This document shows, piece after piece, positions 27,598-63,896 of a stretch of DNA of 64,000 nucleotides. Made by a program: the position numbers and the translations under genes. The stretch is from a virus, in the IMG/VR virus record IMGVR_UViG_3300008050_000036, positions 9,606 through 73,605 of that record; one strand, 5' to 3'. Positions within the stretch are counted from its first letter, which is position 1; every line of letters begins with the position of its first letter. The notes under the pieces are model-generated. The model was given only the letters and a program-made list of their open reading frames with translations. It had not been told where the DNA came from and made no database searches.

Positions 27598-27610
27598 TTT
27601 TTTCAACTCC

Positions 27611-28945
27611 TTATTGTGTTCCTCCGAACATGGCTCTTTGGCCTAATTCCTCAAGTGCTTTCCACCCATCAACTCCGTTGCCTAAAGCAGCGTATTCTTC
27701 GTGGGTAGGAACTCTAATGTCGGTTTGTGCGGGAACTGCAACTGCTGACTTTTGAATCTCGGTGTTTTGTGTTTGGAGATTTGCTATTTCTGCTTTCAAA
27801 AGGTCAATTTGTCCTGAATAGTCTTGTGATTTCTGAATATCGAGTGCTTGTTGTGTTTCTGCTTCATAGCGGTCATGCCATTCTTTCTCAACAAGTGCTT
27901 TTACTGCTTCTTCATCACGGATTGCTGAGTATGCACCATATCCACGCTCAAGAGATTGTGGGCTTAGGTCAAGACCTTGCTTGATAACTTGTCTATTACC
28001 ACGGGCAGGGTGTTGATTCATACCGGCAACTTGGGGTTGCTTGATAACATATTTATTGGATTTGGCATTTGGTAGGCTTGGTGCGCTTGCGAGGGTAGCA
28101 TCTTCGCCACTACCTACTAAGTCACCCTGTCCTCTATGCCCATAGCCATGTTCACCATCAACGCCAGCCATATATGCTTTACCAAGACCGAAGTGGTCCC
28201 GAAGTCCGTTTAGATTAACACCTTGTTGGTGTGCAAACTTCTCAAGGGTATCAATGTAGGCAACGGCGGCTTCTTCGCCCTTACTTATTTCTGTTTGTTG
28301 TATTTCTTGTGTTGGTTGCTCAACTGCGGGTTCGTTTGTTTCCATATGCTTGTTAATGCGAGATAGTGCATCTCGGATTTCAGTTAGGGTTTCTGCTTGT
28401 TCATTTGTCATATTATCCACTTCCATTTTTAATAGTGTATATCCTGATTCGGGGTTAATCCCCTTTTTACACAAAGTAATTTCATGCAACTCCATATCGG
28501 TTATTTCGCGGTGTGAGCCGTGTTCTTCCGTAGTCTTATTTACTCGGAACAAGGCTTGGCCTCCGATAGAAAATGCTCGCAATTCACCACTGCGAATCTG
28601 TTTTTGCACTTCACGTGCTTTTTCAATATCATCTCTAATGCGGCATATAACAAAGAGTCCATGTTCATCAACATTTGATTTCCATACCCTGCCGTCTGAA
28701 TCAGTAAAGGAGTCAAGAACCTCACCAACTTGAATACCGCTATGTGCTAATTGCACATTACGATAAGACTTGTTAGCCATAAAACCATTAAAGGCTTTCT
28801 TTAATGCAGATACAGGGATTCTATCTCCCTGCTTATCTACCATATCAACAGAAGCATACCCCGCTACTACAAGGTCTTTATCAGCGACAGACTTCAAAAT
28901 AAAGTCTTGACCGATAGCCGACCATTGAGAGGTTGCGCTCGCCAT
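27611..28945 (-). CDS. Prohead protease (HK97 gp4/XkdF-like) fused to a coiled-coil scaffold
   Basis: VVAGYASVDMVDKQGDRI, AHS (His), LRAFSIGG (Ser), LHEITLC (Glu). Helical Gln/Glu-rich C-terminal half. Start re-assigned to MASATS at 28945. Confidence 0.9.
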   Translation of the reverse strand: MASATSQWSAIGQDFILKSVADKDLVVAGYASVDMVDKQGDRIPVSALKKAFNGFMANKSYRNVQLAHSGIQVGEVLDSFTDSDGRVWKSNVDEHGLFVICRIRDDIEKAREVQKQIRSGELRAFSIGGQALFRVNKTTEEHGSHREITDMELHEITLCKKGINPESGYTLLKMEVDNMTNEQAETLTEIRDALSRINKHMETNEPAVEQPTQEIQQTEISKGEEAAVAYIDTLEKFAHQQGVNLNGLRDHFGLGKAYMAGVDGEHGYGHRGQGDLVGSGEDATLASAPSLPNAKSNKYVIKQPQVAGMNQHPARGNRQVIKQGLDLSPQSLERGYGAYSAIRDEEAVKALVEKEWHDRYEAETQQALDIQKSQDYSGQIDLLKAEIANLQTQNTEIQKSAVAVPAQTDIRVPTHEEYAALGNGVDGWKALEELGQRAMFGGTQ

Positions 28946-28970
28946 TAAACTGCTTGACTTAGTGTTATGG

Positions 28971-28978
28971 TATTTAAG
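28971..28978 (-). promoter_or_regulatory. Putative archaeal TATA box for the protease-capsid operon
   Basis: CTTAAATA lies 26-33 nt upstream of ATG 28945 with no RBS, consistent with a leaderless archaeal transcript. A similar CCTTAAAG lies about 23-30 nt upstream of ATG 47009. Confidence 0.45.
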
Positions 28979-31900
28979 CATTGGGCGGTTGAGGGGGCAA
29001 AGAAGCGGGGATAGGCACTTCTTCTTCTTCTTCAAGAGGAACATTTACATTTGCTTCTTTTTCAGCCTCATGTTTTGTTTTTTGAGGGTATCTAAGAATA
29101 GCGGCCGGTCCTTCTACTTCTAATTCCCCTTCAATTTCTTCCCCTGCATCATCAGTAGTCTGTAATGTAATGTGTAATGGTTGTTTAGGCATATCGCCTT
29201 CTTCTGATTGGTAAGGGTCATAAAATGGGGTGGCTTCTTCATCAACCAATTCAGTAGGACCTCTTGGTGCATTATGAGCATCCATCATACCTGACCAGCC
29301 CCCACCAGTCATAGCCCCTACTGCAATTGCAGAACTAATTGCCTTTTCTTCAATCATTTCATCGTCAAGTGCTTCATTAACAGACCATTTACCACCTTCG
29401 GTTTGTTCTAAACCATATTCGCCTCCAAAGTCATTAACCATACTACTTGTTAATCCCTTAACTTTTGTTTTCAATTCAGATAGGGTCAGGGCCTCATCAT
29501 TATCCATAAGGTGTTGCTTGGCCTCAGTCAATTTTTCTTGAGAAGCACTACCTTCACCACTTGGCTCTAATAATGAGGCTTTAGTGAATAATAGGGTATT
29601 CAACGTGGGTATCGTTGGAGGATAGGGGGTAATCTCCTTAATATCATATTTACAAAGGTGGGCTGCTACTGGACCCCACAATTCGAATTGATGTTCAGCG
29701 TGGCGACCTAATGGGTTATTTGGTTTGATTGATTTAAGAGTTAATGTTGAACCATCCCACTCACTATTTACCACAACTGGTGAAGGGTGTCCTGTGTATT
29801 CTAATATCACACTACCGTTCCTACGGCTTACATGGGGTATAAGCCCCTTTGTAATATCATCACCATTTACAGTATATAATATCCATTTGTGGTGAACTTC
29901 TTTACCTTTCATAAATGTAGAGGTAGCATCTCGCAACCACACATCACCTTTGATACTATCAATACTTTTCTTTAGCCCGTCTTGGTCCGTGAACTTACAA
30001 TTAGCGGGCATAGGGAATGATACCCCTTCATCTGTTTCATACATTGTTCGCAAAAGATTTAACCTATCTTCAAGCATTTCCATGTGTATATCTTCATCCT
30101 TATGCACTAATAGGTCAATAGCCCTAAACTTTTTGCCTTTTAATACCCCATCAAAAGTGCAATTACCTTCTTGTTCTCTAATGCCTTTCTTTACAATATC
30201 CGGTAATTTTATTTTGCGCCCTTCTTTGTTAATACCTTTTACTTCATTACCTTTCTTAGAAATAATAACTCTCTTGCCTTCAGGCTTTTCCTGAATAACC
30301 CAATTACCACTAAAGCCCTTTAAGTCGCCTATATCATGTAAATCATAGATTGTGTGCGCTGGATTGATTACCTTTCGAAAAATACCAGTAGGTTCATAAT
30401 CGTCTGATTTCCATATATCCCCACTAACTATTGGTGCATGGCCTTCATCATTTGTCACAAACAATGCTGGTATATTGTTTTGTTTGGGGGTGGTAGGATA
30501 AGGCAAAATTGTAGGATTTACCATATTTACATGTCCTTCATGGGCGGTTCTTTGTAGAGTATCAAACGATTTATCCTTTATGTCAAAACGCACATTACCA
30601 CCTTTACGGTCATAATTCCAAGCAAGGGTGGTGGGCATTTTATGGCCCCAAGCATCTTTATCGCCGGTTAGATAGACTGGTGGGGTTGTTGCTTTTGAAG
30701 TAGGGTGAACTGGACCAATAGGCACATGTTGTTGATTCAAGCCCCCCGCCAACACGCTTGGGGCTATTGACTTTAATTTCTCATGCCCATTACGCATCAA
30801 CTGGTAATTAGCGGCTTGGGCTAATTGTTGTATATTGCCTCTCGCTACTGTGACTCCCCTTACATCAGAAGGGTGAGCATTAAACAAATCCGGATTATCC
30901 TTAGTCAAAGCAATAGCCATTTCTTGCATTACTTTGCCGAGGTTTTCATCGGTCTTTTCATAATGGTCGTTGTGATAAGCGTGGTATTGTTCATCTCCGG
31001 GGTGGCGTTCTTGGCTCATACCATTACGAGGCATCCCCATATCACTATGGGCAGATACAATACGACCTAATGGTTGAGTAATAAGTGCCTCCGAGGGAAT
31101 AATCATCCGTTTGCCACTACCTTCAACTTCCGAAGGGTGTAAATGATGATGATTAGATACTGACCCCCAAAGACCCCTACGAGCATTAAATGATTTAACG
31201 CGTGGGTGTTCAGACCCTACCTCCCATCCAGTAGCAATTGCAGAACGATGAGGGTGTCCTTTCATTGATTCGTGGTTAGCGGTTTCGGGGAAGTATGATG
31301 AACCGCTACTGTGGTAAGCATCTTCACTATCATTTAATGGGTGGTTTTCATTTTTTAAGAAGTCCAGCATATCGTTGCCTACCCACCCATCAAAAGCATC
31401 GGGGTATGATTGCTTCATTACAGAAATGAGAGAATCGTGCCCACGCCCTACACCTCCCCAATACTGAAAGGGATTCCACCAATGGTGGGTATGAGAAGGC
31501 GCAATACCTCCATTTTCTTCAACAAAGGGCGATTTGAAATGTTTTAGGTCGCTATTCATATCATCTGCCGATACCGGACCATGACGGTCTGATGCCCTTT
31601 GCCACCAACGGGCAATAGGTAAGAATCGCTCAAAGTAATTGCGTTTTGCTCGCCCCCAAGACATACCAGTAGCGGCGGGCATATCGTTAATTATTTTCTT
31701 TGCGGCGGGGCTATTAGGTGATTCGGTTTGACCTAATTTACGCAACATTCCCATAAATGCTTCATTTTGGTCAGGGGATTGCCATTCTGTCCCAAAAAGA
31801 TATGAAAGCATACCTAAGTTATTCCATTCCTTCTTTTTTACATCAATATATTCATCATCCGAAATAAATGAGTGACGGGTTTCTTTGTCATTTTTATACA

Positions 31901-45739: not shown

Positions 45740-45741
45740 CT

Positions 45742-46022: not shown

Positions 46023-46024
46023 CT

Positions 46025-51308: not shown

Positions 51309-52513
51309 AATCCTTCATCAACCTTTCGTGGTTGTAATGATTTGGCTCTATTTACGATAGAAACAGATGGATTTATTTGAGGTCCAGTGTAAAAGGCATT
51401 ACCTTGAGGGTCATATCTCAATTGCCCACCCCCCCTTAACTCCATTGTAGCACCTTTCTTTGAACCAATATGAGGGAAAAAGGAACTCATATTACTTTTG
51501 CGTTGCTTTTTCCCTTCAAAACAAGAGGGACAGTTATTTTCTTCACAACTATCATCTTTCACCGAAGGGTCTGATGCAGGACAAGCAAATATGTTAGGCC
51601 CCGCTGCCCCAACACCAGTAGCAGATATTTGGGGGTGTTCTTCAACCATCTCACGGAGATAGCGGGGTATAGTAGGCAAACCTAATGTTCGGTTCATATC
51701 ATCATCCATACTTTGCCCAATCCACGGCAAACTTGCACTAACTTCCATATTTTCGGGTATTGCATCATCCCATCCTCTTGCATCAACCACATTTCTTAAT
51801 GCCCTATGTTCAGCAGTAGGCATCCATGATTGTGTTTTTAGTGGGTGTTCGTTAAGAATGTTGCGGGCTATATCAAAATCCATAGCAATATGTTCTTCCC
51901 CTTGTTTTTCTCCCGCATCACTATGTCTAAAATAAGGCGTTCCGTAATCCCATGTTTTGTGAGGTAATGTAGAGGCCATAGCAGAAGCATACTTTAATTG
52001 TTCTTCATGTCCTTCATTCATCAATAACGCTACGGCGTTGCGCCATAAGGCTTTATTTTTTGAATTATACTTAAAATTAGGAGTGTTGTCATTATAACAT
52101 ATATTACAAGTAGCACCTTTTTTGTCCCTATAACAACCACCCATATTACATAAAGCGTTAGGTAGGCCGTGTGTTGCACCATACATTTTATCCGTAAATC
52201 CATATCCTCCCGTTTTGGCGTTTAATCCTGTCATTATGTTAGCCGACATTCTGTTCTTAGGGCCTGAAGGCCATTTCGGGATTTGGGTTATTTCTTCGAC
52301 AGGCCAATGAACTTGTAAGTCTTTTAGCCAATCATCAATTTCCTCCTTACCTTCATTTGTTTTAGTCCAATTTTTAATTTGGCCCCCTGCCCCTACTTTT
52401 GTTGTGCCTCCTAAAGCCACGGGGTCCCACCAACCCACTTTCCCCGGTTGCCCTAATGGATAATCAAGCCCTTTAACAAGAGCCTTAGCAAGAATCTCTA
52501 CACCCAAAAACAT
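51305..52513 (-). CDS. Gp88-like Cys-rich protein (divergent)
   Basis: HGLPNALC...CNICY...YFRHSDAGE...SWMPTAE...IPENMEVSAS...FACPAS...CEENNCPSCF follows the phage gene-product-88 motif order, recalled from family knowledge. Confidence 0.6.
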   Translation of the reverse strand: MFLGVEILAKALVKGLDYPLGQPGKVGWWDPVALGGTTKVGAGGQIKNWTKTNEGKEEIDDWLKDLQVHWPVEEITQIPKWPSGPKNRMSANIMTGLNAKTGGYGFTDKMYGATHGLPNALCNMGGCYRDKKGATCNICYNDNTPNFKYNSKNKALWRNAVALLMNEGHEEQLKYASAMASTLPHKTWDYGTPYFRHSDAGEKQGEEHIAMDFDIARNILNEHPLKTQSWMPTAEHRALRNVVDARGWDDAIPENMEVSASLPWIGQSMDDDMNRTLGLPTIPRYLREMVEEHPQISATGVGAAGPNIFACPASDPSVKDDSCEENNCPSCFEGKKQRKSNMSSFFPHIGSKKGATMELRGGGQLRYDPQGNAFYTGPQINPSVSIVNRAKSLQPRKVDEGF

Positions 52514-52520
52514 AATTATT

Positions 52521-54155
52521 TCACCTGTTCCTGTTAAAATGCCCTAAAACGGCATCAGCCATTGCCCTTGCTACTAAGGGATTAACGGCATTTCCTATTC
52601 CTCGTTGTGATTGCGCTGCGGTTGTATCGCCTAACTTATAATTCATCGGGAAGTTCCCCAAAGCCAAAACATCTTTTTGACTCAATGGCCCTACTCCTAA
52701 ATGTCCGGGTATATTACTACTGGTTAATGACGACATATGGGTATCTATTGGTTTAGTGCCATGCCATGAATACCCCTTCTTTTCAGAAGTCCACGGCGAG
52801 GGTGTATGCCCGCCACCCCTACCGGGAAATGGTGTGCCATGATGTGTTATATGAGGTTCTGTTAATAATTTTGTGGCAATTTTTGGGTCAATTACTCCAT
52901 TAGCGAGCAAACCTAAAATATAATCAGATTTACTTTCAAAATTATCGTGTTCTTCTTCCTCCATATGGGGCAAAAAGTCTTTTACTGTGTTCCAATTTGA
53001 CCTAAACTTTTGTCCGGGTGCTTCATCAAATGGTCTTTCAATGTCAATAAGTTGGTCTAATCCATAAAATCTATTACGTTGTTGTGCGCTGCCAAAATCA
53101 GCAGCATAAGTAGGCTTGCTTCTTTCTACCATCCGTTTAACCCATGCGGGAGGTTGCTTCCATTTTTGCCGACCTGATGCTAAAATGGGTTCTTTGATAT
53201 TGGGGGTTTGTTCAAAGGCTGATACAAATTGGTTTTTACCTAATTTACGGCGGAGTTCATTCGCAAGGTCAAAGGTATAATTCTGTAATAACATGGTTTG
53301 AGCATGGTCTTTTTCTCCCGGCCTTGCATTACTACTATTGATACATGGTGCTGATTGAGATAAAAATACTGGCCTACCGTCTGCATGGTCTATCATGCGC
53401 CCTGCCAATTCTTTATGTCCTAATTCGCCCTCTCCCTCGCCCAATGTCGCTTCAATTAACTCATGGTCGGGAAAATTGGCTCTAAATCGTTCTGCGGCGA
53501 TTGGGTCATTTTCAACACCAATGCCCGGTTCTAAGCCACTCATCTCTAATCCAACATCAGTGCCACCCCACCCTGAAAATGTAGTATTGCCTACTACATT
53601 ATGGGGGTTTTTTTGTTTTTTGGGGCGGTTCATAAGGTTATGATAAGCAGAATATATTTCAGGGTCTAAATAATCTCGCCCCTTGAGTAAAGTGTCCCAT
53701 GCTATTTCAAACGCATCTTCTGAGGCATAAAAGCCCATTTCACGTGCTTCTTTACCCTCCAATCCGGCAAACTTGCATTTATCCCATTGGTCCAATACTT
53801 GGCGAGCATAAAAATGAAACTCCGTTGGTGGTAATTCAGGCTTACGGCTTGTGACATTATTTTGATAGAACGGGCCGGGTATATCACCTGCAAAATCACG
53901 CAAAGCCGCTTCCAATTCTTCACAACTCATTGCATCATAGCCTTCTATAATTTTTGATTCATAGCCACGGGGTTGAATATCTGATTGCGCCAAGAGATTA
54001 TACCACATTTCCCTTGCTTTACCACAACATGGGTCATTCCCCATGTCTATCTGCTCAAAATCAGGGATAGTATCTTCATCGGGTAATAGAATATCATTAA
54101 CCCGTTCCCGCAAATTACGTGGTTCAATGGCGGAAGCCTCTAAATCACCTACCAT
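52521..54155 (-). CDS. Two-module protein: Cys-containing helical domain, tag linker, C5-cytosine DNA methyltransferase
   Basis: Motif I FSGWGG, II VENDP, IV SAPC, VI FEQTP (ENV variant), VIII AADFGSAQQRNRFY, X IGNAVNP. Preceded by ASEDAFEIAWDTLLKG. Confidence 0.8.
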   Translation of the reverse strand: MVGDLEASAIEPRNLRERVNDILLPDEDTIPDFEQIDMGNDPCCGKAREMWYNLLAQSDIQPRGYESKIIEGYDAMSCEELEAALRDFAGDIPGPFYQNNVTSRKPELPPTEFHFYARQVLDQWDKCKFAGLEGKEAREMGFYASEDAFEIAWDTLLKGRDYLDPEIYSAYHNLMNRPKKQKNPHNVVGNTTFSGWGGTDVGLEMSGLEPGIGVENDPIAAERFRANFPDHELIEATLGEGEGELGHKELAGRMIDHADGRPVFLSQSAPCINSSNARPGEKDHAQTMLLQNYTFDLANELRRKLGKNQFVSAFEQTPNIKEPILASGRQKWKQPPAWVKRMVERSKPTYAADFGSAQQRNRFYGLDQLIDIERPFDEAPGQKFRSNWNTVKDFLPHMEEEEHDNFESKSDYILGLLANGVIDPKIATKLLTEPHITHHGTPFPGRGGGHTPSPWTSEKKGYSWHGTKPIDTHMSSLTSSNIPGHLGVGPLSQKDVLALGNFPMNYKLGDTTAAQSQRGIGNAVNPLVARAMADAVLGHFNRNR

Positions 54156-54255
54156 ATAATCAATCCCTAAAGGTTTGCTTTCAAAAACATTTAGGTTATT
54201 TTAACCAAAAACAATAGTATTGGACCCATAATGTTCAATCCTCAAAGGGTATGTT

Positions 54256-54268
54256 AGGGTTGTCAGCC
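54256..54268 (+). promoter_or_regulatory. 13-bp motif AGGGTTGTCAGCC upstream of the thermosome (copy 2)
   Basis: Identical to 50727..50739. Ends 40-43 nt before ATGs 54308/54311, upstream of TTGATAGG. Confidence 0.55.
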
Positions 54269-54307
54269 ATGCAAGCATTGATAGGCTATGCCGTTTTGCC
54301 CCCATCC

Positions 54308-55879
54308 ATGATGAACGGACCCAATGGACCCATTTTTATTTTGAAGGAAGGAACAGAAAGGAGTCAAGGCAGGAATGCTCAATTGAATAACATAGCAGCG
54401 GCAAGGGCTGTCGCAGATGCAGTAAGAAGCACTTTGGGTCCAAAAGGAATGGATAAAATGCTGGTTGATGAAGGCGGTGATGTGACTATTACTAATGATG
54501 GTGCTACTATCCTTCGTGAAATAGCCATCGACCACCCTGCGGCCAAGATGATTATTGAAGTAGCGCAAACCCAAGAGCAAGAATGCTATGACGGGACAAC
54601 CAGTGCGGTAATCCTTGCGGGTGAATTACTCAAGCGTTCTGAGGAATTGATAGACCAAAATGTTCATCCAACTACAATATGCAAGGGGTATCGTATGGCG
54701 GGCAAATACATACAAAAGTTATTACCCAATTATGAATTACAAGATGTGCCACTAATCAATATCGCCACTACTGCCCTTACTGGTAAATCGGCTGATTCGT
54801 TTAAGGACAATCTCGCAACCATTTGTGTTGAAGTAGTGGAGTTAATTGCAGATAACGGGAATGTTAATCTTGATAATATCAATATAGTGAAAGCGGTAGG
54901 TGGTTCAGGTGAAGATAGTCGCATAATTCATGGTTTGGTTATTGATAAAGACCCCGTTCATTCAGCCATGCCTCTTTTACTACAAGAAACAGAATATCAT
55001 ACAGTAGCCATTATCAATAGTGCGCTCGAAGTTAAACAAACAGAAATGGATGCCAATATCCAAATTACCGACCCAAACCAAATAGAAGCGTTCCTTGCTA
55101 AAGAAGAAGCCTATTTGAAGGGCATTGTGGCTAAAATCATTGAAAGTAAGGCACAAATACTCATCTGTCAGCGTGAAATAGACGATATGGTGAAACATTA
55201 CCTTGCTAAAGCGGGCATCATGGCTCTTGAAAAAGTAAAAACCTCAGACATAGAAAACCTTTCGATTGCTACTGGTGCAGACATTATTAGCAACCTTGAC
55301 GACTTATCCTATGATTCTTTGGGCTTTTGTGCTGAAATGGAGGTTAAGAGGGTTGGTGAACATAATATGACCTTTTTTACTAATCTTCACAAAGATGCCG
55401 TCACATTATTACTTCGGGGTGGCACTGTTCATTATGTTGAAGAAGTAGAACGGGCTTTTGACGATGCGGTAGGTGTTGTATCATTGGCATACAAAGACGG
55501 TGCAGTATTAACTGGTGGGGGTTCAATTCATACTGCTCTTTCACTTAAATTAGATAAATACGCAAAAAATATCACAGGGCGTGAACAAATGGCTATTGAG
55601 GCATTTGCTAAGGCACTTGAAGTAATCCCTCGCACTTTAGCAGAAAACGCTGGTCTTGACCCTGTGGATGAAATGATGCACCTCCGTCAAGCACACAGTC
55701 TTAAAGCGGGCAAACACATGGGTATTGAGATAGAAAATGGCGGCACATGGGATATGCGAATGGCAAATGTGTATGAGCCAAAGCGTGTTATTAGTCAAGC
55801 ATTAAAATCAGCAGTAGAAACGGCCATTATGGTTCTGCGTATTGATGATGTAATATCATCTAAGAAAAAGGGTCAATGA
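54308..55879 (+). CDS. ths: Group II chaperonin (thermosome subunit)
   Basis: [27 protein letters not shown] (GDGTT variant), [36 protein letters not shown]. Confidence 0.95.
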
Positions 55880-56716
55880 TTATTGTTGCCAATATGAACA
55901 TATTGCATGGTGGTCTGAAGCGGCCTTATGAACCCCTTGCTTACCCGGAGGCCCCCTTCTCTTTAATTGAGATGGAGTCATAGAACCCATAACCTCTTTG
56001 TGTGATATTTTCCACCCACAGGGGCAAGTGGCTACATATCCTCGGCTTAAATCATCACGGTCATGCCCAAAAACCCAAGCACCATCTTCTTTACGTAATA
56101 CATCAAACGCTTTATCAATAAGCCGCTTAATTTCACCATCAGGGGTTTGCCTAACATAAGGTTTATCAGACGCACTTTCAATAAGCCCCTCATTCACTAA
56201 TTTATTCCAGTAGTCAATTTTATCCCGTTCAACATTAGTGACATGGGCTGTTCCCCACTCAGAAACATCATCAATAAACTCTTGGAGGCGTTCTCTTGAT
56301 AGCCCTTGACCTCGCTTATCCGCAGCCATCGTAAAATTAGTAATGGCATTGTCATAATTTTCTTCGCCTTCTTGCTCTAATAAAATCGAGCGCATAACAC
56401 CACGGGCATCTCCTTCTTTTGATTCCCAAGCGGTATCATTTTCTGTCGTTGCACCTATCAAATCAGCAAGAATATCAGGATAACGGCCCCAATCAATTGA
56501 GGGTGGTTTATCCATAGACTCATCATCATATAAAGTCCACGTAGGGGCTTTACGCAATAAATTAAACGCTTTTTCAATCGGTTCACATTTACACTTCTTT
56601 TTTTTACAGGTCTTACACGGCCAATCTACTTCAATTGGCTTGGGTTTAGATGGTTTCCCCCAATCATCATCCGTAGGGAAAACCTTAAATATAGAGAGAT
56701 TTGGTTGCCGCATCAA
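55880..56716 (-). CDS. Three-module protein: Cys knuckle, GNAT-like acetyltransferase, Zn finger, separated by AFxxLRK tags
   Basis: IEKAFNLLRK (56549..56569) and IDKAFDVLRK (56090..56110) bracket ITNFTMAADKRGQGLS...IDYWNKL (GNAT motifs A/B). Confidence 0.65.
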   Translation of the reverse strand: MMRQPNLSIFKVFPTDDDWGKPSKPKPIEVDWPCKTCKKKKCKCEPIEKAFNLLRKAPTWTLYDDESMDKPPSIDWGRYPDILADLIGATTENDTAWESKEGDARGVMRSILLEQEGEENYDNAITNFTMAADKRGQGLSRERLQEFIDDVSEWGTAHVTNVERDKIDYWNKLVNEGLIESASDKPYVRQTPDGEIKRLIDKAFDVLRKEDGAWVFGHDRDDLSRGYVATCPCGWKISHKEVMGSMTPSQLKRRGPPGKQGVHKAASDHHAICSYWQQ

Positions 56717-58692
56717 AACCCCTCCACCTCAAAGCGACTATTAGGGAAGTCAATACTTGACCCCAACAAACGCTTCTTCTTCCGTGAATCATCCAATTCG
56801 CTAATTATTTGCCTTACATCACGGCTAATATCAGGGGTATATTGGGGATAGCGTTTTGGTATGGGTGTTCTCTTGGCTGAGGCTAATAAGCGAGCAATTT
56901 CTTCTTGCCCATATAACCCCCGTTCATCATCAATAAAGGGGCTTTCTGAAACATAATCAATAATTCGCCCATCAGCCCCTACATTGCCCCCTTCTTCATA
57001 GAATGGTTGGGGATTACCATATTCGTTAGCGGCCATTTGACGGGCTTCATCCATATCTCCCCCTGCTGCATCTATTATTTCCCAATCAATATCTTCATCC
57101 CTTAACCCATCAAGATATTCTACCATGTCATCTTCATCAACATTTATATCTTTTAAGCCGAAAAGATGCGCCGCAATGCCACCCAACCTTGCTTCATCAG
57201 CAATGCCCCACTCTAATGCTTCTTGAAAAGTAGGGCTTTTCTCCTGCACTAAATCCAAAGAAGAAGTATCACCATATTTAGTATTAAATACTGAATAAGG
57301 GCTTATATCTCCGTCTGTAAAATCACCTAATACTTTCGACCACCAAGCCTCTAAGGGGCTTCTCATTACATTGTCCGGCGCAGACATTAAATGACTATTC
57401 ATAAAATTATTATTACCACCAATTAAATTAAAAGGATGCCTCGTAATGGTATTTTGCAGGGCCGAGCGTTGCCCCCTATCTGAATCTTTTGGCACTTTAG
57501 CCACCATATCATGGGTCGGTATATTGAATACTCTTGCTTCAAGACCTTGACCCAATGGAGTAGGGATAGGGCCAAGAGGTAATTGATATTCCCCCTCATC
57601 TTCATCAAAACCATATTGCTGACCTTCTTTATCAAAAAAATTATTAGTATTTTCGTCTAAATAAAACCCTCCTTCACCAAACTGCTCTAAAGCAGCATTA
57701 AAATCAAATCGGTTAAAGGGCGACATAGTTAATCGCTCTCTAAACTCTTTGTAGGCTGCCTCATCTGCGGTGGCTTTTATTAGACTGGCTTCAACTCCAC
57801 AACCACAAGAACATTCATCCAAAGTATCATCACTACGATGTAGTAATTGCCAATTCTCAGGGAAGGCTTCATTTACAATTACTGCGCTGTTTTCATCATC
57901 AGGGTCAAAAGTATGGATGGGGGTATTGTTTCGTATGTATGCGTCAGGTTTTGGGCTTATCCATTTATCACCTTGCCTAAACCCCGCTAAACCCCTCCAA
58001 TCTCTAACATTGGGTATAAATTGATTAACATAATTATGCAAAACATCAGCGTTATCTTCCTGTCGTTGCGATACCCGTTGGTTTAATTCGTTAGCCGCTT
58101 CCAGTGAAGTCATGCGCCTAAATCCTTCACGATGGCCGGTTTCATCTTTAGGGGGTAGTGCAAGAGAAGGAGGGAGGTGTTTTAAGGGGGGTTTTTTAAC
58201 AGGTAAATATCTTTGGGGGGTGTCCCAACCACCCGACATTTGGCCTGAAGGATTAACATTCCACCAATAATCTGTTAATAATTCTTTGTGGGGCAATGTG
58301 CCTTCGCGTGTTAATTTTAATAATTCACTAATTGGCGTATTTTTTATTGTTTCTAATATATTTGCTCTATCTTTATCATAAGGATTAGGTTGAAAAAAGG
58401 GTTGGGGTTTATTTTCTATTCTATTTTTTTTCGCTTCGTTTAACCGGCCCACCAAATACTCTAATTTGTTTTTTTCAGGTATGTCTTGGTTTTTATCAGC
58501 AGGGTTTCCAAACATTAAGGATTCAACATAAGAGGGTGATACCCACCCCTTTTGAGAAAACTTGGCGCGGGCTTTAGGGTCGGGGATAAAACGGTATATG
58601 CTATCTGTATCTAAATACCAACGTAGCATATCATTTGGCGAAGGTTGAATATCTCTCCTACTTCCTTCGTATTTCTTATCCCTCATATTCAT
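56713..58692 (-). CDS. Two-module protein with C-terminal atypical protein-kinase-like domain
   Basis: After ASLIKA: LGQGLEARVF (Gly loop), VAKVP (Lys), LVQEK, LKDIN...GNVG, RIIDY. Confidence 0.55.
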   Translation of the reverse strand: MNMRDKKYEGSRRDIQPSPNDMLRWYLDTDSIYRFIPDPKARAKFSQKGWVSPSYVESLMFGNPADKNQDIPEKNKLEYLVGRLNEAKKNRIENKPQPFFQPNPYDKDRANILETIKNTPISELLKLTREGTLPHKELLTDYWWNVNPSGQMSGGWDTPQRYLPVKKPPLKHLPPSLALPPKDETGHREGFRRMTSLEAANELNQRVSQRQEDNADVLHNYVNQFIPNVRDWRGLAGFRQGDKWISPKPDAYIRNNTPIHTFDPDDENSAVIVNEAFPENWQLLHRSDDTLDECSCGCGVEASLIKATADEAAYKEFRERLTMSPFNRFDFNAALEQFGEGGFYLDENTNNFFDKEGQQYGFDEDEGEYQLPLGPIPTPLGQGLEARVFNIPTHDMVAKVPKDSDRGQRSALQNTITRHPFNLIGGNNNFMNSHLMSAPDNVMRSPLEAWWSKVLGDFTDGDISPYSVFNTKYGDTSSLDLVQEKSPTFQEALEWGIADEARLGGIAAHLFGLKDINVDEDDMVEYLDGLRDEDIDWEIIDAAGGDMDEARQMAANEYGNPQPFYEEGGNVGADGRIIDYVSESPFIDDERGLYGQEEIARLLASAKRTPIPKRYPQYTPDISRDVRQIISELDDSRKKKRLLGSSIDFPNSRFEVEGF

Positions 58693-59126
58693 TTACCCCC
58701 CTTTGGGTAAATGCCGTATAATGCTAACATTTTCCGTCTTTCATCTTCGTCAATACCCGGAGTCGCAGACCAAGCACCATATTCTTGAAACCTCTCCCAA
58801 TCATTATCCACTTTGGATTGAGCAACCCTCTTTTCCTCATCAGACGCATCATCAGGTAATTTGGTGCGAACAGCATTCCAAATATCATCAGTATGGGGTG
58901 GGTTAAGGGCTTGGTGGGTGGATTCATGTGCTAAGATTTGCATTACCCTGTTCATTCGCTCTTTGTCTGAGGTCATGTTTCTAAATGCAGGTTCAATACG
59001 ATTTGAAAGATTGACGAATGCTTCATCGGTGTTCATATCATATCCACCGGCCATTAGGATATTAGGAAAACCGCCCATAAAACGAAAGTCTTTGACTATG
59101 AGCCACGCTTGTTCAAATGCACTCAT
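58689..59126 (-). CDS. Leader-tagged HExxH zinc-metallopeptidase-like protein
   Basis: MSAFEQAWLIVK leader (ATGA overlap, start 59126). ILAHESTHQA and downstream QEYGA. Confidence 0.75.
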   Translation of the reverse strand: MSAFEQAWLIVKDFRFMGGFPNILMAGGYDMNTDEAFVNLSNRIEPAFRNMTSDKERMNRVMQILAHESTHQALNPPHTDDIWNAVRTKLPDDASDEEKRVAQSKVDNDWERFQEYGAWSATPGIDEDERRKMLALYGIYPKGGK

Positions 59127-59422
59127 TCGGGCCACCCCGTTCCGTTGCACATATCGCATTCACGGCCTCTATAATCTCCATCCCCCCGACATTGAGCGCA
59201 AACTACGATTGTTTGCTTTGTTTCAGCATATTCCTTATCGTGAGGGAATAATTGTTCACACTTACCACACCACCAAGCGGCTACTCTCGGATAGCCAAAA
59301 CCAAACGAAGTCCATTCTTGGGTTCTTTTTGAACCACAATTCGGGCAAATGTCATTATTATTGAACTCGGCTACTGGTTCACCCTCTTTGAGTAATTTGA
59401 AGGCTCTATTAAATGCACTCAT
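59123..59422 (-). CDS. Leader-tagged double Zn-ribbon protein (DnaJ-type CxxCxGxG)
   Basis: MSAFNRAFKLLK leader. CPNC, CGKC, CAQCRGDG, CDMCNGTG. Confidence 0.8.
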   Translation of the reverse strand: MSAFNRAFKLLKEGEPVAEFNNNDICPNCGSKRTQEWTSFGFGYPRVAAWWCGKCEQLFPHDKEYAETKQTIVVCAQCRGDGDYRGRECDMCNGTGWPE

Positions 59423-59568
59423 TTACCAGTCACCCAACCAATGGCCCATACAAAGGGCAAACATACCAACAATATAGGTATTACGACTAATACAATGCCC
59501 AAAAGAGCAAAATCACCCATCATTCCCCACAAACCATTGGTTTTTGTTTGGTGGGTTTTATGGGTCAA
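59419..59568 (-). CDS. Small membrane peptide (untagged)
   Basis: TTGA overlap start. FALLGIVLVVIPILLVCLPFVWAIGW hydrophobic stretch. Confidence 0.55.
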   Translation of the reverse strand: MTHKTHQTKTNGLWGMMGDFALLGIVLVVIPILLVCLPFVWAIGWVTGK

Positions 59569-60023
59569 ACATCTCCCCCCTCTCTTGGGGCATCGTGAAA
59601 CCACGTTAATGCCGTTTCATCCCACGGCCCCCAAGTGTTATGCTCAAGCATTTTTTTATTCATTTCATCAACATTGTAGCGTATTATATCGTCTGAATTA
59701 AACCTCCCAAAGAAAGAATACAAAGCCAATGGTAATCTTGTGTCAGTAGAAGGGTCATAAGCCCATTCCATGTGTTCCCCCTCCACTGGTTCACCTTCAT
59801 GCACTTTACCTTCCAAATCACCCATGTAAGTAGTGAAAGCGTGTCCGTATTGCCTACCTTCAATTGGCCCCTGACCAGTCACTTGAGCATGAGCAAGTGA
59901 ATACCCCGGATTTGAACAAACCCATCTCCCTGCTTCCATATAACAATCCCCGTTTCTATTTTCTTCAGGAATATCCCCTTCTGCTTCCTTGAGCAAATCC
60001 CACGCTCTCTCAAATGCGGTCAT
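59565..60023 (-). CDS. Leader-tagged transglutaminase/papain-like (Cys-His-Asp) protein
   Basis: MTAFERAWDLLK leader. GDCY...YGHAF...AYDPS putative triad. Ends WGPWD. Confidence 0.65.
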   Translation of the reverse strand: MTAFERAWDLLKEAEGDIPEENRNGDCYMEAGRWVCSNPGYSLAHAQVTGQGPIEGRQYGHAFTTYMGDLEGKVHEGEPVEGEHMEWAYDPSTDTRLPLALYSFFGRFNSDDIIRYNVDEMNKKMLEHNTWGPWDETALTWFHDAPREGGDV

Positions 60024-60343
60024 CAAACCATCCCTCCCAAATCAGTATTTAATAATCCTAATCTCTCTAACATAGCATTGATATTTCCAATAATCAACTC
60101 AGGGGTAAAAAAGCCTATATTACCATCCGGGTTTCTAAGGCGTTTTTCTTCCTGTTCTAAATAATAAAGCCAACCCATCAAAGTATTCTCATCTTCCCTA
60201 TCAAGTAGCCTTCCAAAATTATCCATACAATAACGCCTATATCTTCTCAAATCGTCTGCGTCAAAAGTATTTGGCTTAAACCACTTAGCACCATCTTCAA
60301 GCCCTTCCTTGAGCAAATCCCATGCTCGTTCAAATGAGGTCAT
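60023..60343 (-). CDS. Leader-tagged helical hypothetical protein
   Basis: MTSFERAWDLLK leader at an ATGA overlap (start 60343). Confidence 0.75.
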   Translation of the reverse strand: MTSFERAWDLLKEGLEDGAKWFKPNTFDADDLRRYRRYCMDNFGRLLDREDENTLMGWLYYLEQEEKRLRNPDGNIGFFTPELIIGNINAMLERLGLLNTDLGGMV

Positions 60344-61053
60344 GGTCCCGTCACCTGCCTTTTCTGTGGCCCCCAATACTTCTTGCGTTGCCCTCGCTTC
60401 CATTCATTACGCCTATCTCTCATATCCACATAAGCATAAAAATCTTCATCGGCGGCATCTTCACGCATGGCTCGGCTTCGGTATAATTCATCCATGAGTC
60501 GGCTTCGCTGGCTTTCTGAATCATTAAACATTTGGTGTGTTGCTTGCGCTTCTTCTATTTCCTCTTGTGTCAATTGTCTAATCAAATGAGCCGGAATTGG
60601 TTTGTTGGTTCTGCGTTGGTCGAACTCATCATCCCATGCGAAAGAACGACCCAATCTCTTATCAGGAATGGGTATTTCGGGCATGAAATAAGGAGAATCA
60701 GGGTGTTTATCATCAATTTCCAACACTACTGCATCATCCTCACCTTGCATCCAGTCAGCACCCATCGTTATTGCCCCTGCTTTACCACCAACCGTATTCA
60801 TGGTCGGTGTGGCTTGGTCGCCCCAAAAAAACGACCAATCGCCACCATAATATGTTTCAAACTCTTTGTCAGACAAACCCAACAGTTCTTGAAGTTCTTT
60901 TTCTTTGCCATCCCAATTTCCACAAGTTAAGTCAGGTGGGGCATCATACGGCTTCAAGAATCCTTCCTCTTGTATCTGTTTCCACGCATCTTCGGTTGTG
61001 CCGTGATACATAGACATCTTCACTATGTCCCACGCTTTGTCAAATGCGTTCAT
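60340..61053 (-). CDS. Leader-tagged ADP-ribosyltransferase-fold (YHGT, Tpt1/KptA-like) protein
   Basis: MNAFDKAWDIVK then MSMYHGTT..WKQIQEEGFLKP...AVVLEID...KPIPAHLI. Confidence 0.65.
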   Translation of the reverse strand: MNAFDKAWDIVKMSMYHGTTEDAWKQIQEEGFLKPYDAPPDLTCGNWDGKEKELQELLGLSDKEFETYYGGDWSFFWGDQATPTMNTVGGKAGAITMGADWMQGEDDAVVLEIDDKHPDSPYFMPEIPIPDKRLGRSFAWDDEFDQRRTNKPIPAHLIRQLTQEEIEEAQATHQMFNDSESQRSRLMDELYRSRAMREDAADEDFYAYVDMRDRRNEWKRGQRKKYWGPQKRQVTGP

Positions 61054-62402
61054 GGGCGAAACTCTCCTGTCCCGTCACACCAGTCGCATTCATACGAATC
61101 AAGTTCCTTATTGTATTCCTTTTGCCCACCATTTCCCTTACATTTACCACAAACACGGATTGGTCGTGGTGTAATAGCATATTTGTTGTCGTGAGGGGTA
61201 AATGATTCACATTTCGGGCAATCCCAACCATGCACAACTGGATAGTCAAAACCCAATTGAGTTCGCCTTTGAACCATCTTACCGCCACATTTAGGGCAAA
61301 TATCGTTGCCACCGAACTCAATAGTGGGTTCGCCCCCCTTGAGCAACCGCATAGCGACTTCCATTGGTTCGCCTTTGTTCCCCTCTTGCCAATCAGTATC
61401 AACAACGGGATTATACATTATATCATTACGGCGATTAGATTTCATAGGCCCAAAAGGTGTAGGTATTGTATCGGATTCACCAACTTGTCCCATCTCGACT
61501 GGGTGTTGCATATATTGAGTAAATACGGGGTTATCGCTACGAAAATCACGAATAATTGCCTCGACATGCTCATTGTGTTCTTCAATAGGAATATCGTCAT
61601 TCAAGTTAAAATAGTTCATAATAATAACATTTAGTTTTGTCCTATCTTCGGGGGACATATTCGCTGACGCAGTATCATAAGGAGTCATTATTCCATCCTT
61701 GAGCAACCGCATGGTGACTTCCATTGGTTCGCCCGCTATTATCTTATCGTCAGTAATATCATATTGATAATCGGGGTTATCGTAAGGGGTTTGAATGGTT
61801 GTAGGATATGACCCAGTATAATCCTCCCCAGTATAGATTCTATCAAGAACCCGACTACGGGCTTTTGGTATGATAGGTTCCGGTGTATGGCGACCACCTC
61901 TATCTTGCATAGCCGCCCTTGTAGCCATTTCTAAAACATGCGCGGGCATTTCTCTTTGGGCAAAGGACCCCTCTCGGAACTGGCTATCTAAAGCATGGCC
62001 TACTTCATGCGCCATTTCCGGTGCTATATCAGCCGTGAACTTATCTATTGTTCTCTTTGTATCGAAATGTGTATCTCTTGGTTTGCCAAATCCGCCCCAA
62101 TTAGCCATTTCAGCATATCGTTTGAGGCCAACCTTTGTAGGGGCCAAGAAAGCCTTGCTGTCTATATGACTCGGCCATAACTTCTCAGCCTCAGCCTCAG
62201 TCATTAACTTATTGTCAATACCTTGAAAAAGGTCACTATAATAGACAAACCCCGGTAGCGGTCCGGGCTTTACCATATCCTCCCTGTTCGTCATACCGGC
62301 TACCTGCATTGCCTTTTTATCCGGCAGATAGTCATAATCGGCATCATATTCAAACCTCCGAGTTCCTTTAAGTAATCCCCAAGCAGTATCAAATGCGGTC
62401 AA
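61050..62402 (-). CDS. Leader-tagged three-module polyprotein (HExxH peptidase-like, helical domain, double Zn ribbon)
   Basis: TTG start MTAFDTAWGLLK. MAHEVGHALD...REMPA. Two internal GEPMEVxMRLLK linkers. Last module is paralogous to 59123..59422. Confidence 0.85.
   Translation of the reverse strand: MTAFDTAWGLLKGTRRFEYDADYDYLPDKKAMQVAGMTNREDMVKPGPLPGFVYYSDLFQGIDNKLMTEAEAEKLWPSHIDSKAFLAPTKVGLKRYAEMANWGGFGKPRDTHFDTKRTIDKFTADIAPEMAHEVGHALDSQFREGSFAQREMPAHVLEMATRAAMQDRGGRHTPEPIIPKARSRVLDRIYTGEDYTGSYPTTIQTPYDNPDYQYDITDDKIIAGEPMEVTMRLLKDGIMTPYDTASANMSPEDRTKLNVIIMNYFNLNDDIPIEEHNEHVEAIIRDFRSDNPVFTQYMQHPVEMGQVGESDTIPTPFGPMKSNRRNDIMYNPVVDTDWQEGNKGEPMEVAMRLLKGGEPTIEFGGNDICPKCGGKMVQRRTQLGFDYPVVHGWDCPKCESFTPHDNKYAITPRPIRVCGKCKGNGGQKEYNKELDSYECDWCDGTGEFRP
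61337..61733. repeat. 37-bp direct repeat (35/37 identical), 360-bp period, encoding GEPMEVxMRLLK
   Basis: ccttgagcaaccgcat(a/g)g(c/t)gacttccattggttcgcc at 61337..61373 and 61697..61733. Confidence 0.9.
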
Positions 62403-63094
62403 ATTACATCACCCGCCAATTCATAAAACATTTCTAAATCCTTTGGCGTAATGCCCCTCGTATATCCCTTATCAGTTCTCGCAGTAAGCGCAATGCGCCC
62501 CAATAAAGACTCTAAACCTAATTCGTTTGCCATGACCCCTCTATGGTGACCGTCTGTGATATTTATTCTCCATTCAGTATTAGGATAATTAACAACACCT
62601 TTCAACGGCGGTGGTCTATATCCCTGCCTGTAAAAATCTGCATACTTTTGAGCCTGTGCCAATTTACCTGCCCAATTACCCCAACCACCAACCGTTTCTT
62701 CAGTAATGCCTTCTGACCAAGAAGTATCATCACCCTTAATCGGCACATCTTCAAAGCGAGCCAATTCCCACATATCAGGATTTGAGTATGAATCGTTCCA
62801 TACTAAATCATTCTTCGGCGGGCTAATTGCATAATTTTCAACGGGGCGGTCTTGTTCGGCTAACCAATTGCGTGAACGGATATTTTTTCGGTTGCGACCT
62901 TCTTCGGAATAATCACCATCTTCAAACGAAGGATAATCTAATACCTTTTGGGGCTTAGGTAATCGGGATAGCCGAGAGATTGAATTAGGTCGTTCTTGCG
63001 CTTGGATAACGGCTTCTGCATCAATTCTGCGAGGAAAATGGGGTGAAAATGCTTCTCCCTTCAACAAACCCCAAGCAGTATCAAAAGCGGTCAT
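62399..63094 (-). CDS. Leader-tagged ParB/Sulfiredoxin-like protein
   Basis: MTAFDTAWGLLK (start 63094). RPPPL...ITDGHHRGVMANELGL. Confidence 0.75.
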   Translation of the reverse strand: MTAFDTAWGLLKGEAFSPHFPRRIDAEAVIQAQERPNSISRLSRLPKPQKVLDYPSFEDGDYSEEGRNRKNIRSRNWLAEQDRPVENYAISPPKNDLVWNDSYSNPDMWELARFEDVPIKGDDTSWSEGITEETVGGWGNWAGKLAQAQKYADFYRQGYRPPPLKGVVNYPNTEWRINITDGHHRGVMANELGLESLLGRIALTARTDKGYTRGITPKDLEMFYELAGDVI

Positions 63095-63561
63095 GTGTGT
63101 CCTCTCCATCCGTATTCGTGAATTGAATTACCTTCGCTAAACAAATCCTTTGCCTTTACTGCCCTTCTAAGGAGTTTATACCCACCTTCGCCATGTCTGC
63201 CATGTCCGAATCTCATTCCATGTTCTTTCGCATAACCTTTTGATGTTGAAACCCAATCTCCGGGGTTAATTTTATTTCCTTCAATTTCATAAGGAACGGT
63301 TCTATAAACAAGCACCTTTGCATCAGGTTTGTTTCTAACTGACATAATGATTGAATGAGAGTGTCTATCTCGTTCCTGTGATTCTTGGCTACCATCCCCA
63401 TAGTATCGCACCCCTAAATGCGAATACAAATCTTCAGGATATATCCCGGTCATGTCATGCAAGGGCGAATGGTAATCGGGTTCAATCGGGGCTACATGGT
63501 GTCCTCGATAATCGTCAATGTCCTCTTTGACTAAACCCCATGCTCGTTCAAATGCGGTCAT
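63091..63561 (-). CDS. Leader-tagged ADP-ribosyltransferase-like (R-S-E type) domain protein
   Basis: MTAFERAWGLVK leader. VYRTVP...INPGDWVSTSKGYAKEHG...VKAKDLFSEGNSIHEYGW. Confidence 0.6.
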   Translation of the reverse strand: MTAFERAWGLVKEDIDDYRGHHVAPIEPDYHSPLHDMTGIYPEDLYSHLGVRYYGDGSQESQERDRHSHSIIMSVRNKPDAKVLVYRTVPYEIEGNKINPGDWVSTSKGYAKEHGMRFGHGRHGEGGYKLLRRAVKAKDLFSEGNSIHEYGWRGHT

Positions 63562-63896
63562 TCCATCCCTCCTAATAGGTCGCCGAAACCAGTAAAAGAT
63601 TCTTGAGAGTCGGGTGCATTCTTACTTACAAACATTTCAATTTTGTGTGAAACACCTGTATTTTTTAATGCTCGCAACACTTGATTTGGGGTCGCCCCTC
63701 TCAATGAATAATCAAGATGCCAATTATAGCCACCTAAACCTCCACCTGAATCAAATACAATACCCCTTTCTTCTAACTGGGCTTTTAATTGCCAAATAGC
63801 AAAATCTTCATCTTGGTTTATTGGTGTAATATGAACATCATAATACACCCATTCATCAGCCTTAAAAAGCCCCCAAGCAGTATCAAAGGCGGTCAT
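63558..63896 (-). CDS. Leader-tagged hypothetical alpha/beta protein
   Basis: MTAFDTAWGLFK leader. ATGA overlaps on both sides. Confidence 0.8.
   Translation of the reverse strand: MTAFDTAWGLFKADEWVYYDVHITPINQDEDFAIWQLKAQLEERGIVFDSGGGLGGYNWHLDYSLRGATPNQVLRALKNTGVSHKIEMFVSKNAPDSQESFTGFGDLLGGME

Follow-up and report, generated by a model that had tools for sequence, protein, structure and literature searches.

A portable peptide tag on an ART-like module and a ParB/Srx-type protein of a magrovirus-like archaeal virus, a possible capsid load-and-clip label

The window analysed here is a 64,000-nucleotide stretch (bases 9606-73605) of one linear 73,605-base contig, IMG/VR record IMGVR_UViG_3300008050_000036, in which almost all genes lie on the minus strand. 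It derives from a magrovirus-type tailed virus of archaea. Near its end, two overlapping genes encode a 156-amino-acid (aa) protein resembling ADP-ribosyltransferases (ART) and a 231-aa protein of ParB/sulfiredoxin (ParB/Srx) type. Both begin with the same kind of 12-residue peptide, the tag, which also heads many otherwise unrelated proteins of this and related viruses. The best overall explanation, to which we give a probability of roughly 55%, is that a virus of the magrovirus kind encodes a tagged minimal-ART module and a tagged ParB/Srx protein, and that the tag is a label by which such proteins are loaded into the capsid and which is then clipped off. A wider proposal is put forward tentatively and at less than even odds: the tag, with its variants, could be a universal load-and-clip signal of magrovirus-like archaeal viruses, packaging well over 150 shuffling effector families and replacing covalent polyvalent proteins. 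The cargo injected with the DNA would then include a new minimal ART clade (the C-domain of PHROG 2579) and a new ParB/Srx branch.

Polyvalent proteins, as defined in excerpts of Iyer et al. 2017 (PMC5512222), combine 2-15 effector domains in one polypeptide and are argued in that text to be packaged and injected. The initial annotation of this stretch had suggested that the virus carries the same kinds of domain on separate, individually tagged genes, as a mix-and-match alternative to one giant protein. Polyvalent proteins, the capsid targeting sequence (CTS) of phage T4, the ParB/Srx fold and the ART fold are already known. New are the link between a tag of archaeal viruses and the polyvalent-protein repertoire, the occurrence of fused and unfused forms of one module inside one virus clade, and the ART-type hypothesis for the PHROG 2579 C-domain. 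A description of the tag was not found in the portions covered of the magrovirus literature (PMC5434244, PMC11706807) and of the literature on capsid targeting in archaeal tailed viruses.

Tagged genes in the window

The tag follows the 12-residue pattern M-T-A-F-[DE]-x-A-W-x-[LIV]-[LV]-K, and a looser form, M-[TSN]-[AS]-F-[DEN]-x-A-[WF]-x-[LI]-[LVF]-K, covers nine gene starts in the window. The tagged features are as follows.

58689..63896, minus strand: row of at least nine consecutive tagged genes reaching the contig end, identified with the looser protein patterns
63896, 63561, 63094, 62402 (TTG), 61053, 60343, 60023, 59422 and 59126, minus strand: tagged starts
63526..63561, minus strand: tag MTAFERAWGLVK of the ART-like gene
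63059..63094, minus strand: tag MTAFDTAWGLLK of the ParB-like gene
61050-62402, minus strand: 450-aa tagged protein with HExxH (HEVGH at residue 132) and a C-terminal CxxC zinc-ribbon/DnaJ-CxxCxGxG-like module
61335..61730, minus strand: two internal tag copies in the 450-aa HExxH protein, EPMEVTMRLLKD at 61695-61730 and EPMEVAMRLLKG at 61335-61370
53679..53717, minus strand: internal tag DAFEIAWDTLLKG, residues 147-159, before a C5 DNA methylase domain

A strict DNA pattern for M-T-A-F-[DE]-x-A-W-x-L-x-K matched the window four times, versus zero times in each of 100 shuffles. Codons vary synonymously at almost every position of the tag, yet the encoded residues do not change; selection on the tag acts at the protein level.

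Internal copies occur as well. The two copies in the 450-aa protein, whose TTG start overlaps the stop codon of the upstream gene, follow the pattern E-P-M-E-V-[TA]-M-R-L-L-K, and the zinc-ribbon module behind the second copy recurs as a separate tagged 99-aa gene (59123-59422, minus strand). The internal tag of the methylase reads D-A-F-E-I-A-W-D-T-L-L-K-G, and a relative of this enzyme (L019:8717-10039) is a C5 methylase with the tag at its N-terminus.

The window methylase itself (C5 cytosine DNA methylase, 52521-54155, minus strand) has about 146 extra N-terminal residues before the internal tag, which has the spacing W-x-x-L-L-K. A 581-aa protein (43168-44913, minus strand) contains the internal tag SNDAFEDAWSIVKD near residue 141, with R-S-N-D just before it; its C-terminal half contains K and R runs and is extremely basic, and the protein might be a DNA-associated internal protein. 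Small Cys-rich proteins encoded at 45362-46414 (minus strand) have degenerate tag-like strings, AFRTGWAVVKG and ASRIGWSVLKG, in mid-protein. The tagged 237-aa protein of 60340-61053 (minus strand), which starts ...MSMYHGTTEDAW, matched no family in Pfam or PHROGs, and its relatives form a cluster of eight tagged proteins. It may be the "first" ART-like domain implied by the initial annotation.

Tagged products and module junctions in related viruses

The tag pattern was found in 92 IMG/VR loci, many of which hold two to seven matches on one strand at gene-sized spacing. At least seven tag-bearing IMG/VR contigs were also among the contigs encoding relatives of the major capsid protein (MCP) of the window. 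Using the looser peptide pattern and complete open reading frames (ORFs), we obtained 344 distinct tagged products with a median length of about 160 aa from these related loci, which were ascertained through the tag itself, and the products fell into 155 cargo clusters after tag removal. These products bear out the view of the tag as a portable unit on very diverse cargo. Conservation ends sharply at the tag Lys; the next residue is mostly A or M, followed by P, D or E.

Of the 155 clusters, 13 had representatives shorter than 60 aa and were set aside. From the other 142, Pfam scanning covered 138 representatives, the four from the window having been scanned separately. A Pfam family at E≤1e-3 was found for only 8 of the 138 (DUF6321, GP88, C5 DNA methylase, DUF5872 and zinc ribbons among these matches), and for this reason most tagged cargo cannot be called polyvalent-protein domains. 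The suggestion that domains of polyvalent proteins reappear here on separate tagged genes is borne out for the 156-aa module and is not supported for most of the cargo.

In relatives, the tag is also located where modules are fused. P0001 (312 aa) and P0002 (475 aa), both closely related to the ART-like protein, carry a Met-less internal tag directly ahead of the ART-like domain. The front part of P0002 is homologous to the 659-aa window protein encoded at 56713-58692 (E 2e-25); this homology ends at the common string ...Q-L-[IL]-[NH]-R-S-[ED]-D, beyond which the two proteins are divergent. Across the loci, internal tags are of two kinds, standing either after R-S-x-D or after [GS]-E-P-M. Judged from these sequences, the tag is a unit at the level of the peptide, and the boundaries between modules are marked by it. 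Gene order around tagged genes was not conserved between related loci, in agreement with the mix-and-match arrangement that had been proposed.

The R-S-x-D string often lies 2-5 residues before internal tags (loci L013-L089, and the end of the module common to P0002 and the 56713-58692 protein). It might serve as a hinge or as another site of processing.

A candidate clip site in the protease-scaffold protein

The prohead protease of the virus is fused to a long scaffold-like part, and alignment of this family revealed five [hydrophobic]-[LIV]-K sites that are conserved in 49 homologs. They are given below with a slash at the candidate clip position.

27611..29044, minus strand: S78 prohead protease fused to a long scaffold-like C-terminal part (PHROGs and Pfam)
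28424-28444, minus strand: candidate junction site GYTLLK/M in the window protein, at the protease/scaffold junction
Site 1: D-F-I-L-K/S, near the N-terminus
Site 2: Y-T-[LI]-L-K/M-[DE], 100% kept, at the end of the S78 domain and the start of an indel-rich linker
Sites 3-5: Y-V-I-K/Q, V-I-K and L-K/A-E

The tag end, W-x-[LIV]-[LV]-K, has the same pattern as these five sites. Repeated scaffold sites of this sort are expected for maturation cleavage sites, as established for other tailed phages generally, and by analogy we infer that the five conserved sites would serve maturation cleavage. The likeness between the tag end and these sites favours a label that is loaded into the capsid and then clipped.

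Two further comparisons with the tag lent no support to this. The conserved C-terminal tail of the protease-scaffold protein, D-G-W-[RK]-A-L-E-E-L, has only W and L in common with the tag, and copying of the scaffold tail by the tag was not confirmed. The MCP N-terminus contains the string "DLLKAD", which is uninformative as a tag-like clip site because the whole N-terminus is uniformly conserved (78 homologs, 77-91% identical).

The ART-like protein

The following features belong to the gene of the 156-aa protein.

63091..63561, minus strand: gene of the 156-aa tagged protein, ART-like
63301..63303, minus strand: codon of R87, candidate first catalytic residue (strand 82-90; R in 43 of 43)
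63247..63249, minus strand: codon of S105 (strand 103-105; S or T in 43 of 43)
63115..63117, minus strand: codon of E149 (strand 149-152; E in 42 of 43, one gap)

The product consists of the tag and a compact domain of about 135 residues, and the gene overlaps that of the 231-aa protein by 4 bases. The motifs on which an ART-like assignment had been based, VYRTVP, PGDWVSTS and EYGW, are in place at residues 85, 100 and 149. No Pfam family was found for the 156-aa protein, even at E≤5 in 25 family members. PHROG 2579 ("ParB C-terminal domain") matched residues 12-155 with an E value of 2.4e-35, at profile positions 335-463 of 472. A tblastn search detected the domain at 35-40% identity in 180 phage records, of which 159 are mycobacteriophages. 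In phage Icee (gp133) the homolog is a separate gene product of about 129 aa, encoded among non-structural genes and annotated as ParB-like.

A search limited to longer proteins returned 35 longer relatives, 13 of which have 1101-1939 aa. The domain was mapped in them by BLASTP, and the Pfam scan covered 34 of the 35 (P0003 was left out). ART-PolyVal is present in 11 of these proteins, and its best stretch lies elsewhere than the ART-like domain in all 11; P0008, for instance, contains ART-PolyVal at residues 397-520, the ART-like domain at 888-1025 and LPD3 at 1099-1204. Other longer relatives possess PBECR3, SLT, Phage_portal (P0020), NUDIX together with Peptidase_S78_2 (P0035), GNAT (P0025) or Gln_amidase (P0026). 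A weak ParB_N match precedes the ART-like domain in P0021, and a DGRHR string precedes it in P0024. Because the domain recurs in 35 longer proteins beside ART-PolyVal, LPD3, portal and other domains, its sequence relationships identify it as a recurrent polyvalent-protein module, separate from ART-PolyVal. Identity with ART-PolyVal (PF18760) was rejected: hhalign against nine ART-PolyVal segments gave a probability of 1.2%, the two domains occupy different positions in the same proteins, and lenient Pfam matches in the 25 members were noise.

Structural matches in BFVD point to similar company. At E≤1e-3 the domain had 15 matches (TMq up to 0.78), with names that include large-polyvalent-protein-associated domain, GP88, DEDDh, acetyltransferase and type I restriction enzyme. 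A 1172-aa GP88-domain protein in BFVD also contains the ART-like module. The window encodes a GP88-family protein of its own (PF17338, 8.6e-9; 51305-52513, minus strand), which is untagged; a tagged GP88-like protein is found at L052:1649-2905.

The AlphaFold model of the 156-aa protein, built from a 25-sequence alignment, had a predicted local distance difference test (pLDDT) score of 82.3, with values under 50 over residues 5-21, which comprise most of the tag and the linker. In a VIA-wide, Foldseek-independent search of 48,161 chains, the best match was KptA (Z 5.2, 72 residues aligned, root-mean-square deviation (rmsd) 2.8). About 40 of the 50 rows were ART-superfamily proteins, 33 of them by title, and the remaining rows contained no competing fold. 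The titled rows comprise Tpt1, Arr, PARPs, ParT, SdeA, HopU1, Rhs Tre toxins and the diphtheria, pertussis, LT, C3, iota-like, Certhrax, Scabin and Vis toxins. The rest of the count is made up of rows for CNFy, MbcT, RES, IcmQ and AvrPphF, which are not identified as ART by their titles. Phage ADP-ribosyltransferases were among the weaker BFVD rows.

Conservation was counted in 43 family members, polyvalent ones included. R87, S/T105 and E149 are located on three separate predicted strands of the model, and ART catalytic residues are located on such strands. The match of these strands to ART strands 1, 2 and 5 is our own reading and not a superposition. Ahead of the triad, the family has an N-terminal segment of its own with Y18, H22, A-P, D44, Y46 and Y-Y-G (Y..H.AP...D..Y..YYG). 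Since about 40 of 50 structural rows belong to the ART superfamily and the triad is conserved on separate strands, the domain is probably, by its modelled fold, a minimal R-S-E-type ART core with an Arg/Ser-Thr/Glu triad. That the protein catalyses ADP-ribosyl transfer is a prediction with slightly less than an even chance of being right. The ART-like assignment of the initial annotation is upheld in this weak but consistent form.

The ParB-like protein

Two features describe the neighbouring gene.

62399..63094, minus strand: gene of the 231-aa tagged protein, ParB-like, with the tagged start 63094 inside the ORF 62399..63109
62540..62554, minus strand: DGHHR, a ParB/Srx-type phosphate-binding Arg motif, residues 181-185

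In the protein, the tag is followed by about 100 residues to which no fold is assigned, and these by a ParB/Srx domain. It has just seven close relatives, at 52-100% identity, and D181-G-H-H-R185, the motif on which the ParB/Srx proposal had been founded, is invariant in all seven. A profile search of 1.84 billion representatives yielded just two full-length relatives and one partial one; it added to the family a more distant tagged protein, P0043 (268 aa), with the motif HGHHR, and the partial 166-aa protein P0047, with the ParB-like motif N-G-R-H-R; hhalign of the 231-aa protein with P0047 gave 96.4% over residues 146-206. The long matches of that profile search were Ig and WD40 repeat proteins and are spurious. 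Nothing was found by tblastn against phages. The ESM Atlas provided leads only, in the form of clusters with Parb-CE and ParB_N at 0.94.

Foldseek with the low-confidence model of the 231-aa protein, in which pLDDT is under 50 over residues 2-24, returned four matches at E≤1e-3, all of them sulfiredoxin, followed by ParB, Noc, PadC, SbnI, SerK and KorB. In a second look with VIA, 56 of 720 chains had Z≥5. The best was 6ky4, a plant sulfiredoxin (Z 8.5), of which 84 of 89 residues were aligned to the model range 112-214 with an rmsd of 3.4. Among the best 35 of the 56 rows, all named entries were sulfiredoxin or ParB-type, and two rows were uncharacterised. Because these structural matches are clean and DGHHR is invariant, we accept for the C-terminal half (about 112-214) a ParB/sulfiredoxin fold, as modelled, with a four-strand, two-helix alpha+beta core and a phosphate-binding Arg. 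The product of 62399-63094 is most likely, as predicted from this fold, an enzyme that binds nucleoside triphosphates (NTP) or nicks.

The fold thus agrees with what had been claimed for this gene. Its supposed relation to the ParB families of polyvalent proteins or to long proteins found no counterpart in the searches; the cargo-domain search for polyvalent relatives was productive for the 156-aa domain (35 longer relatives) and empty for the ParB-like protein. Neither gene product is polyvalent itself, with one recognisable domain each. Nor did hhalign link the 231-aa protein to the ParB-bearing relatives of the ART-like domain, with values of 2.2% for P0024 and 0.6% for P0021. A pattern scan of viral contigs for ParB-like loci confirmed 0 of 29 matches, and metagenome contigs gave four loci. 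In these four loci the neighbours of the ParB-like homologs are other tagged genes, again as a mix-and-match arrangement would have it, and an ART-like gene is the neighbour in none of them. Conversely, the neighbour of the ART-like homolog in locus L011 is not ParB-like.

Proposed mechanism and alternative explanations

In T4, the head protease removes the CTS. Excerpts of PMC3012670 describe the T4 internal proteins as diverse anti-defence proteins with only this sequence in common, and the CTS as loading them into the scaffolding core. In the models of both window proteins, the tag is an N-terminal segment of low confidence that is unpacked on the domain, with a helix at residues 3-18 in the ART-like model. 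By its sequence, the tag would be amphipathic, with F4, W8 and L11 forming one hydrophobic face together with A3, A7 and L10. We propose that the tag would be a docking helix by which every cargo protein enters the capsid during assembly, and that the head protease would then detach it by a cut after Lys. The virus would deliver, along with its DNA, a variable set of effector enzymes as separate proteins, in place of the single covalent polyvalent protein of other phages. Loading and clipping is the best reading of the tag because of the likeness between the tag end and the protease-scaffold sites and because of the T4 precedent. In other phages the ART-like module is fused to portal, S78_2 and SLT domains, which also favours this reading.

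Several results weigh against this explanation or parts of it. The tagged row is outside the head module, at a distance of about 20 kb upstream from the large terminase gene, and the MCP N-terminus is without a tag. In mycobacteriophages, homologs of the ART-like domain are encoded on their own by small genes with non-structural neighbours, and the domain is therefore not always virion-linked. For the ART assignment, Foldseek against the PDB found nothing at E≤1e-3 (best E 0.04; Vis, ExoS, KptA and ART2.2 in the top rows), the best ART Z score of 5.2 is below the level that the tool calls typical of unmatched models, no Pfam ART family matches the domain, and no sequence-profile link to ART-PolyVal was found. 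For the ParB-like protein, the 1.84 billion representatives contained no long or polyvalent relatives, Pfam at E≤1 (ParB_N etc.) and PHROGs returned no family, a profile search of PDB sequences had FapR as its single match, at E 0.63, and the model, made from seven sequences, is poor (pLDDT 58.3). A functional pairing of the two genes, considered as a Rosetta-stone case from fusions of ParB and C-domain, was dropped, with adjacency in 0 of 4 loci and absent in L011; as adjacency is not conserved, it argues against a specific partnership.

The position of the tagged row would be more easily explained if the tag docked to a hub other than the capsid, such as the virus thermosome, the 1169-aa protein at the MuF position or a host factor, with the enzymes acting unpackaged in the infected cell as a non-covalent assembly. 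We consider this unlikely. It would fit the near-complete relative, with its tags at about 24-31 kb and at 81 kb and its MCP at 54 kb, and also the fact that the virus encodes a chaperonin itself; the tag occurs, moreover, inside the C5 methylase, an enzyme that need not be packaged. According to the excerpts of PMC3012670, the N-terminus of T4 gp23 directs fusions to GroEL. Such a hub would leave aside the match of the tag end to five conserved protease-scaffold sites and the fusions of the ART-like module to portal, S78_2 and SLT in other phages, both of which speak for the capsid. It is far less probable still that the common N-termini arose incidentally through recent duplication, or through recombination at some repeated element of the DNA or of translation starts, and have no peptide function. 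Adjacent genes with overlapping stop and start codons and similar starts could suggest it, but the varying synonymous codons over fixed residues, the internal tags that lack a start codon, the 155 unrelated cargo clusters headed by the tag over many contigs and the sharp stop of conservation after Lys have largely refuted this idea already.

The identity of the ART-like domain itself has a more serious competitor. The 156-aa domain could be an accessory or regulatory domain of ParB-type nucleases and not an ART, its ART likeness being that of a common small alpha/beta arrangement. This is possible, though doubtful. The name of PHROG 2579 suggests it, as does the match to this 472-position profile at 335-463 only; in some relatives a weak ParB_N (P0021) or DGRHR (P0024) stands ahead of the domain, but a ParB domain is absent from most fused relatives. 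The structural scores are low (Z ≤5.2, Foldseek E ≥0.04) and a sequence-profile link to any ART family was not obtained; against this, about 40 of the 50 VIA rows belong to the ART superfamily with no competing fold among the others, the weaker BFVD rows include phage ADP-ribosyltransferases, and 42-43 of the 43 members retain R, S/T and E, each on a predicted strand of its own. The reading of the domain as a minimal ART core is preferred on these grounds.

Comparison with known systems

Like the T4 CTS of IPI-III and Alt, the window tag is a short conserved peptide at the N-termini of unrelated proteins that change fast, with ADP-ribosyltransferases (predicted ones in the window) as one class, and its end resembles conserved sites of the virus's own protease-scaffold protein. 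It differs from the CTS in sequence, in protease family (S78/HK97-type) and in host domain (archaeal). Unlike the CTS it is also found internally at domain junctions and on far more cargo families (155 clusters in the sampled loci). Encapsulin cargo-loading peptides likewise address diverse enzymes inside an HK97-fold shell, as proposed for the window tag, whereas they are usually C-terminal and uncleaved.

The relation to polyvalent proteins (PMC5512222) is closest for the 156-aa domain, a recurrent module of them, and the ParB/Srx, ART, zincin-like HExxH, methylase and GP88 domains of the window are of the same kinds. In contrast to one polypeptide of 2-15 domains, the window domains are separate tagged genes or small proteins of two to three modules, the ParB-like protein is not detectably a DdrB-like ParB, and most tagged cargo is without a known family. 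The PHROG 2579 and mycobacteriophage proteins (Icee gp133) show clear homology to the window domain in the C-terminal third of the profile; unlike it they are untagged and either stand alone (about 129 aa) or, by the name and the profile length, are fused behind a ParB domain.

With the ParB/Srx superfamily (sulfiredoxin, the ParB/Noc/KorB CTPases, SerK, Osa and DdrB-like ParB) the 231-aa protein has in common a match over almost the whole sulfiredoxin chain and a D-G-x-H-R type motif with an invariant Arg. It lacks the helix-turn-helix and the dimerisation domain of partition ParB and has an extra N-terminal region of about 100 residues. The 156-aa model weakly resembles the ART superfamily (R-S-E toxins, Tpt1/KptA) in topology, and its three strands with Arg, Ser/Thr and Glu are a further likeness. 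In size the domain is much smaller, however; it has S-I-H-E instead of [QE]-x-E, so that the second Glu/Gln is missing, contains its own N-terminal segment and matches with low scores.

If the tag is a capsid-loading label, it would offer a simple rule for which proteins of abundant uncultured archaeal viruses of the ocean enter the host with the DNA, and a handle for packaging foreign proteins. It would also join T4-style targeting peptides with the polyvalent effector repertoire, with one module either built covalently into a giant polypeptide or encoded by a tagged gene of its own. For a widespread domain that is labelled uninformatively as "ParB C-terminal domain" in those 180, mostly mycobacteriophage, phage records, the minimal ART with its R/[ST]/E triad provides a structural hypothesis.

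The virus and other genes of the window

Structural genes and a chaperonin gene define the virus. Besides the S78 protease and the genes listed below, PHROGs and Pfam identified a tail tube, a tape measure and giant distal ORFs. Among 50,697 phage records the MCP had 9 relatives, at 25-33% identity, all of them haloarchaeal tailed viruses apart from one Methanofastidiosa virus; identity to Haloarcula tailed viruses was 33%. In PMC5434244, magroviruses, whose hosts are marine group II archaea, are characterised as tailed and haloviral-like, with chaperonins of the thermosome type among their genes. In IMG/VR the MCP had 257 relatives, of which the best 80 were 77-91% identical. Compared with a record of 96,627 bases that is rated 91% complete and has the MCP at 77% identity, the contig probably amounts to about three quarters of a genome.

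Two giant ORFs occupy 3-12876 (minus strand), one of more than 2567 aa that continues beyond the window and one of 1731 aa with a Laminin_G_3 domain. They probably encode tail fibres or adhesins; for Poseidoniales viruses, PMC11706807 mentions a LamG-like gene of 6 kb. A small ORF located between tail genes (19147-19539, minus strand) has a SAP domain (7.6e-10). The thermosome gene is the only long gene on the plus strand in its part of the window.

The main genes are as follows.

37669-39099, minus strand: large terminase (TerL; PHROGs and Pfam)
34591-36405, minus strand: portal (PHROGs and Pfam)
26440-27606, minus strand: MCP (PHROGs and Pfam)
54251-55879, plus strand: thermosome subunit (group II chaperonin) gene (Cpn60_TCP1, 1e-166)

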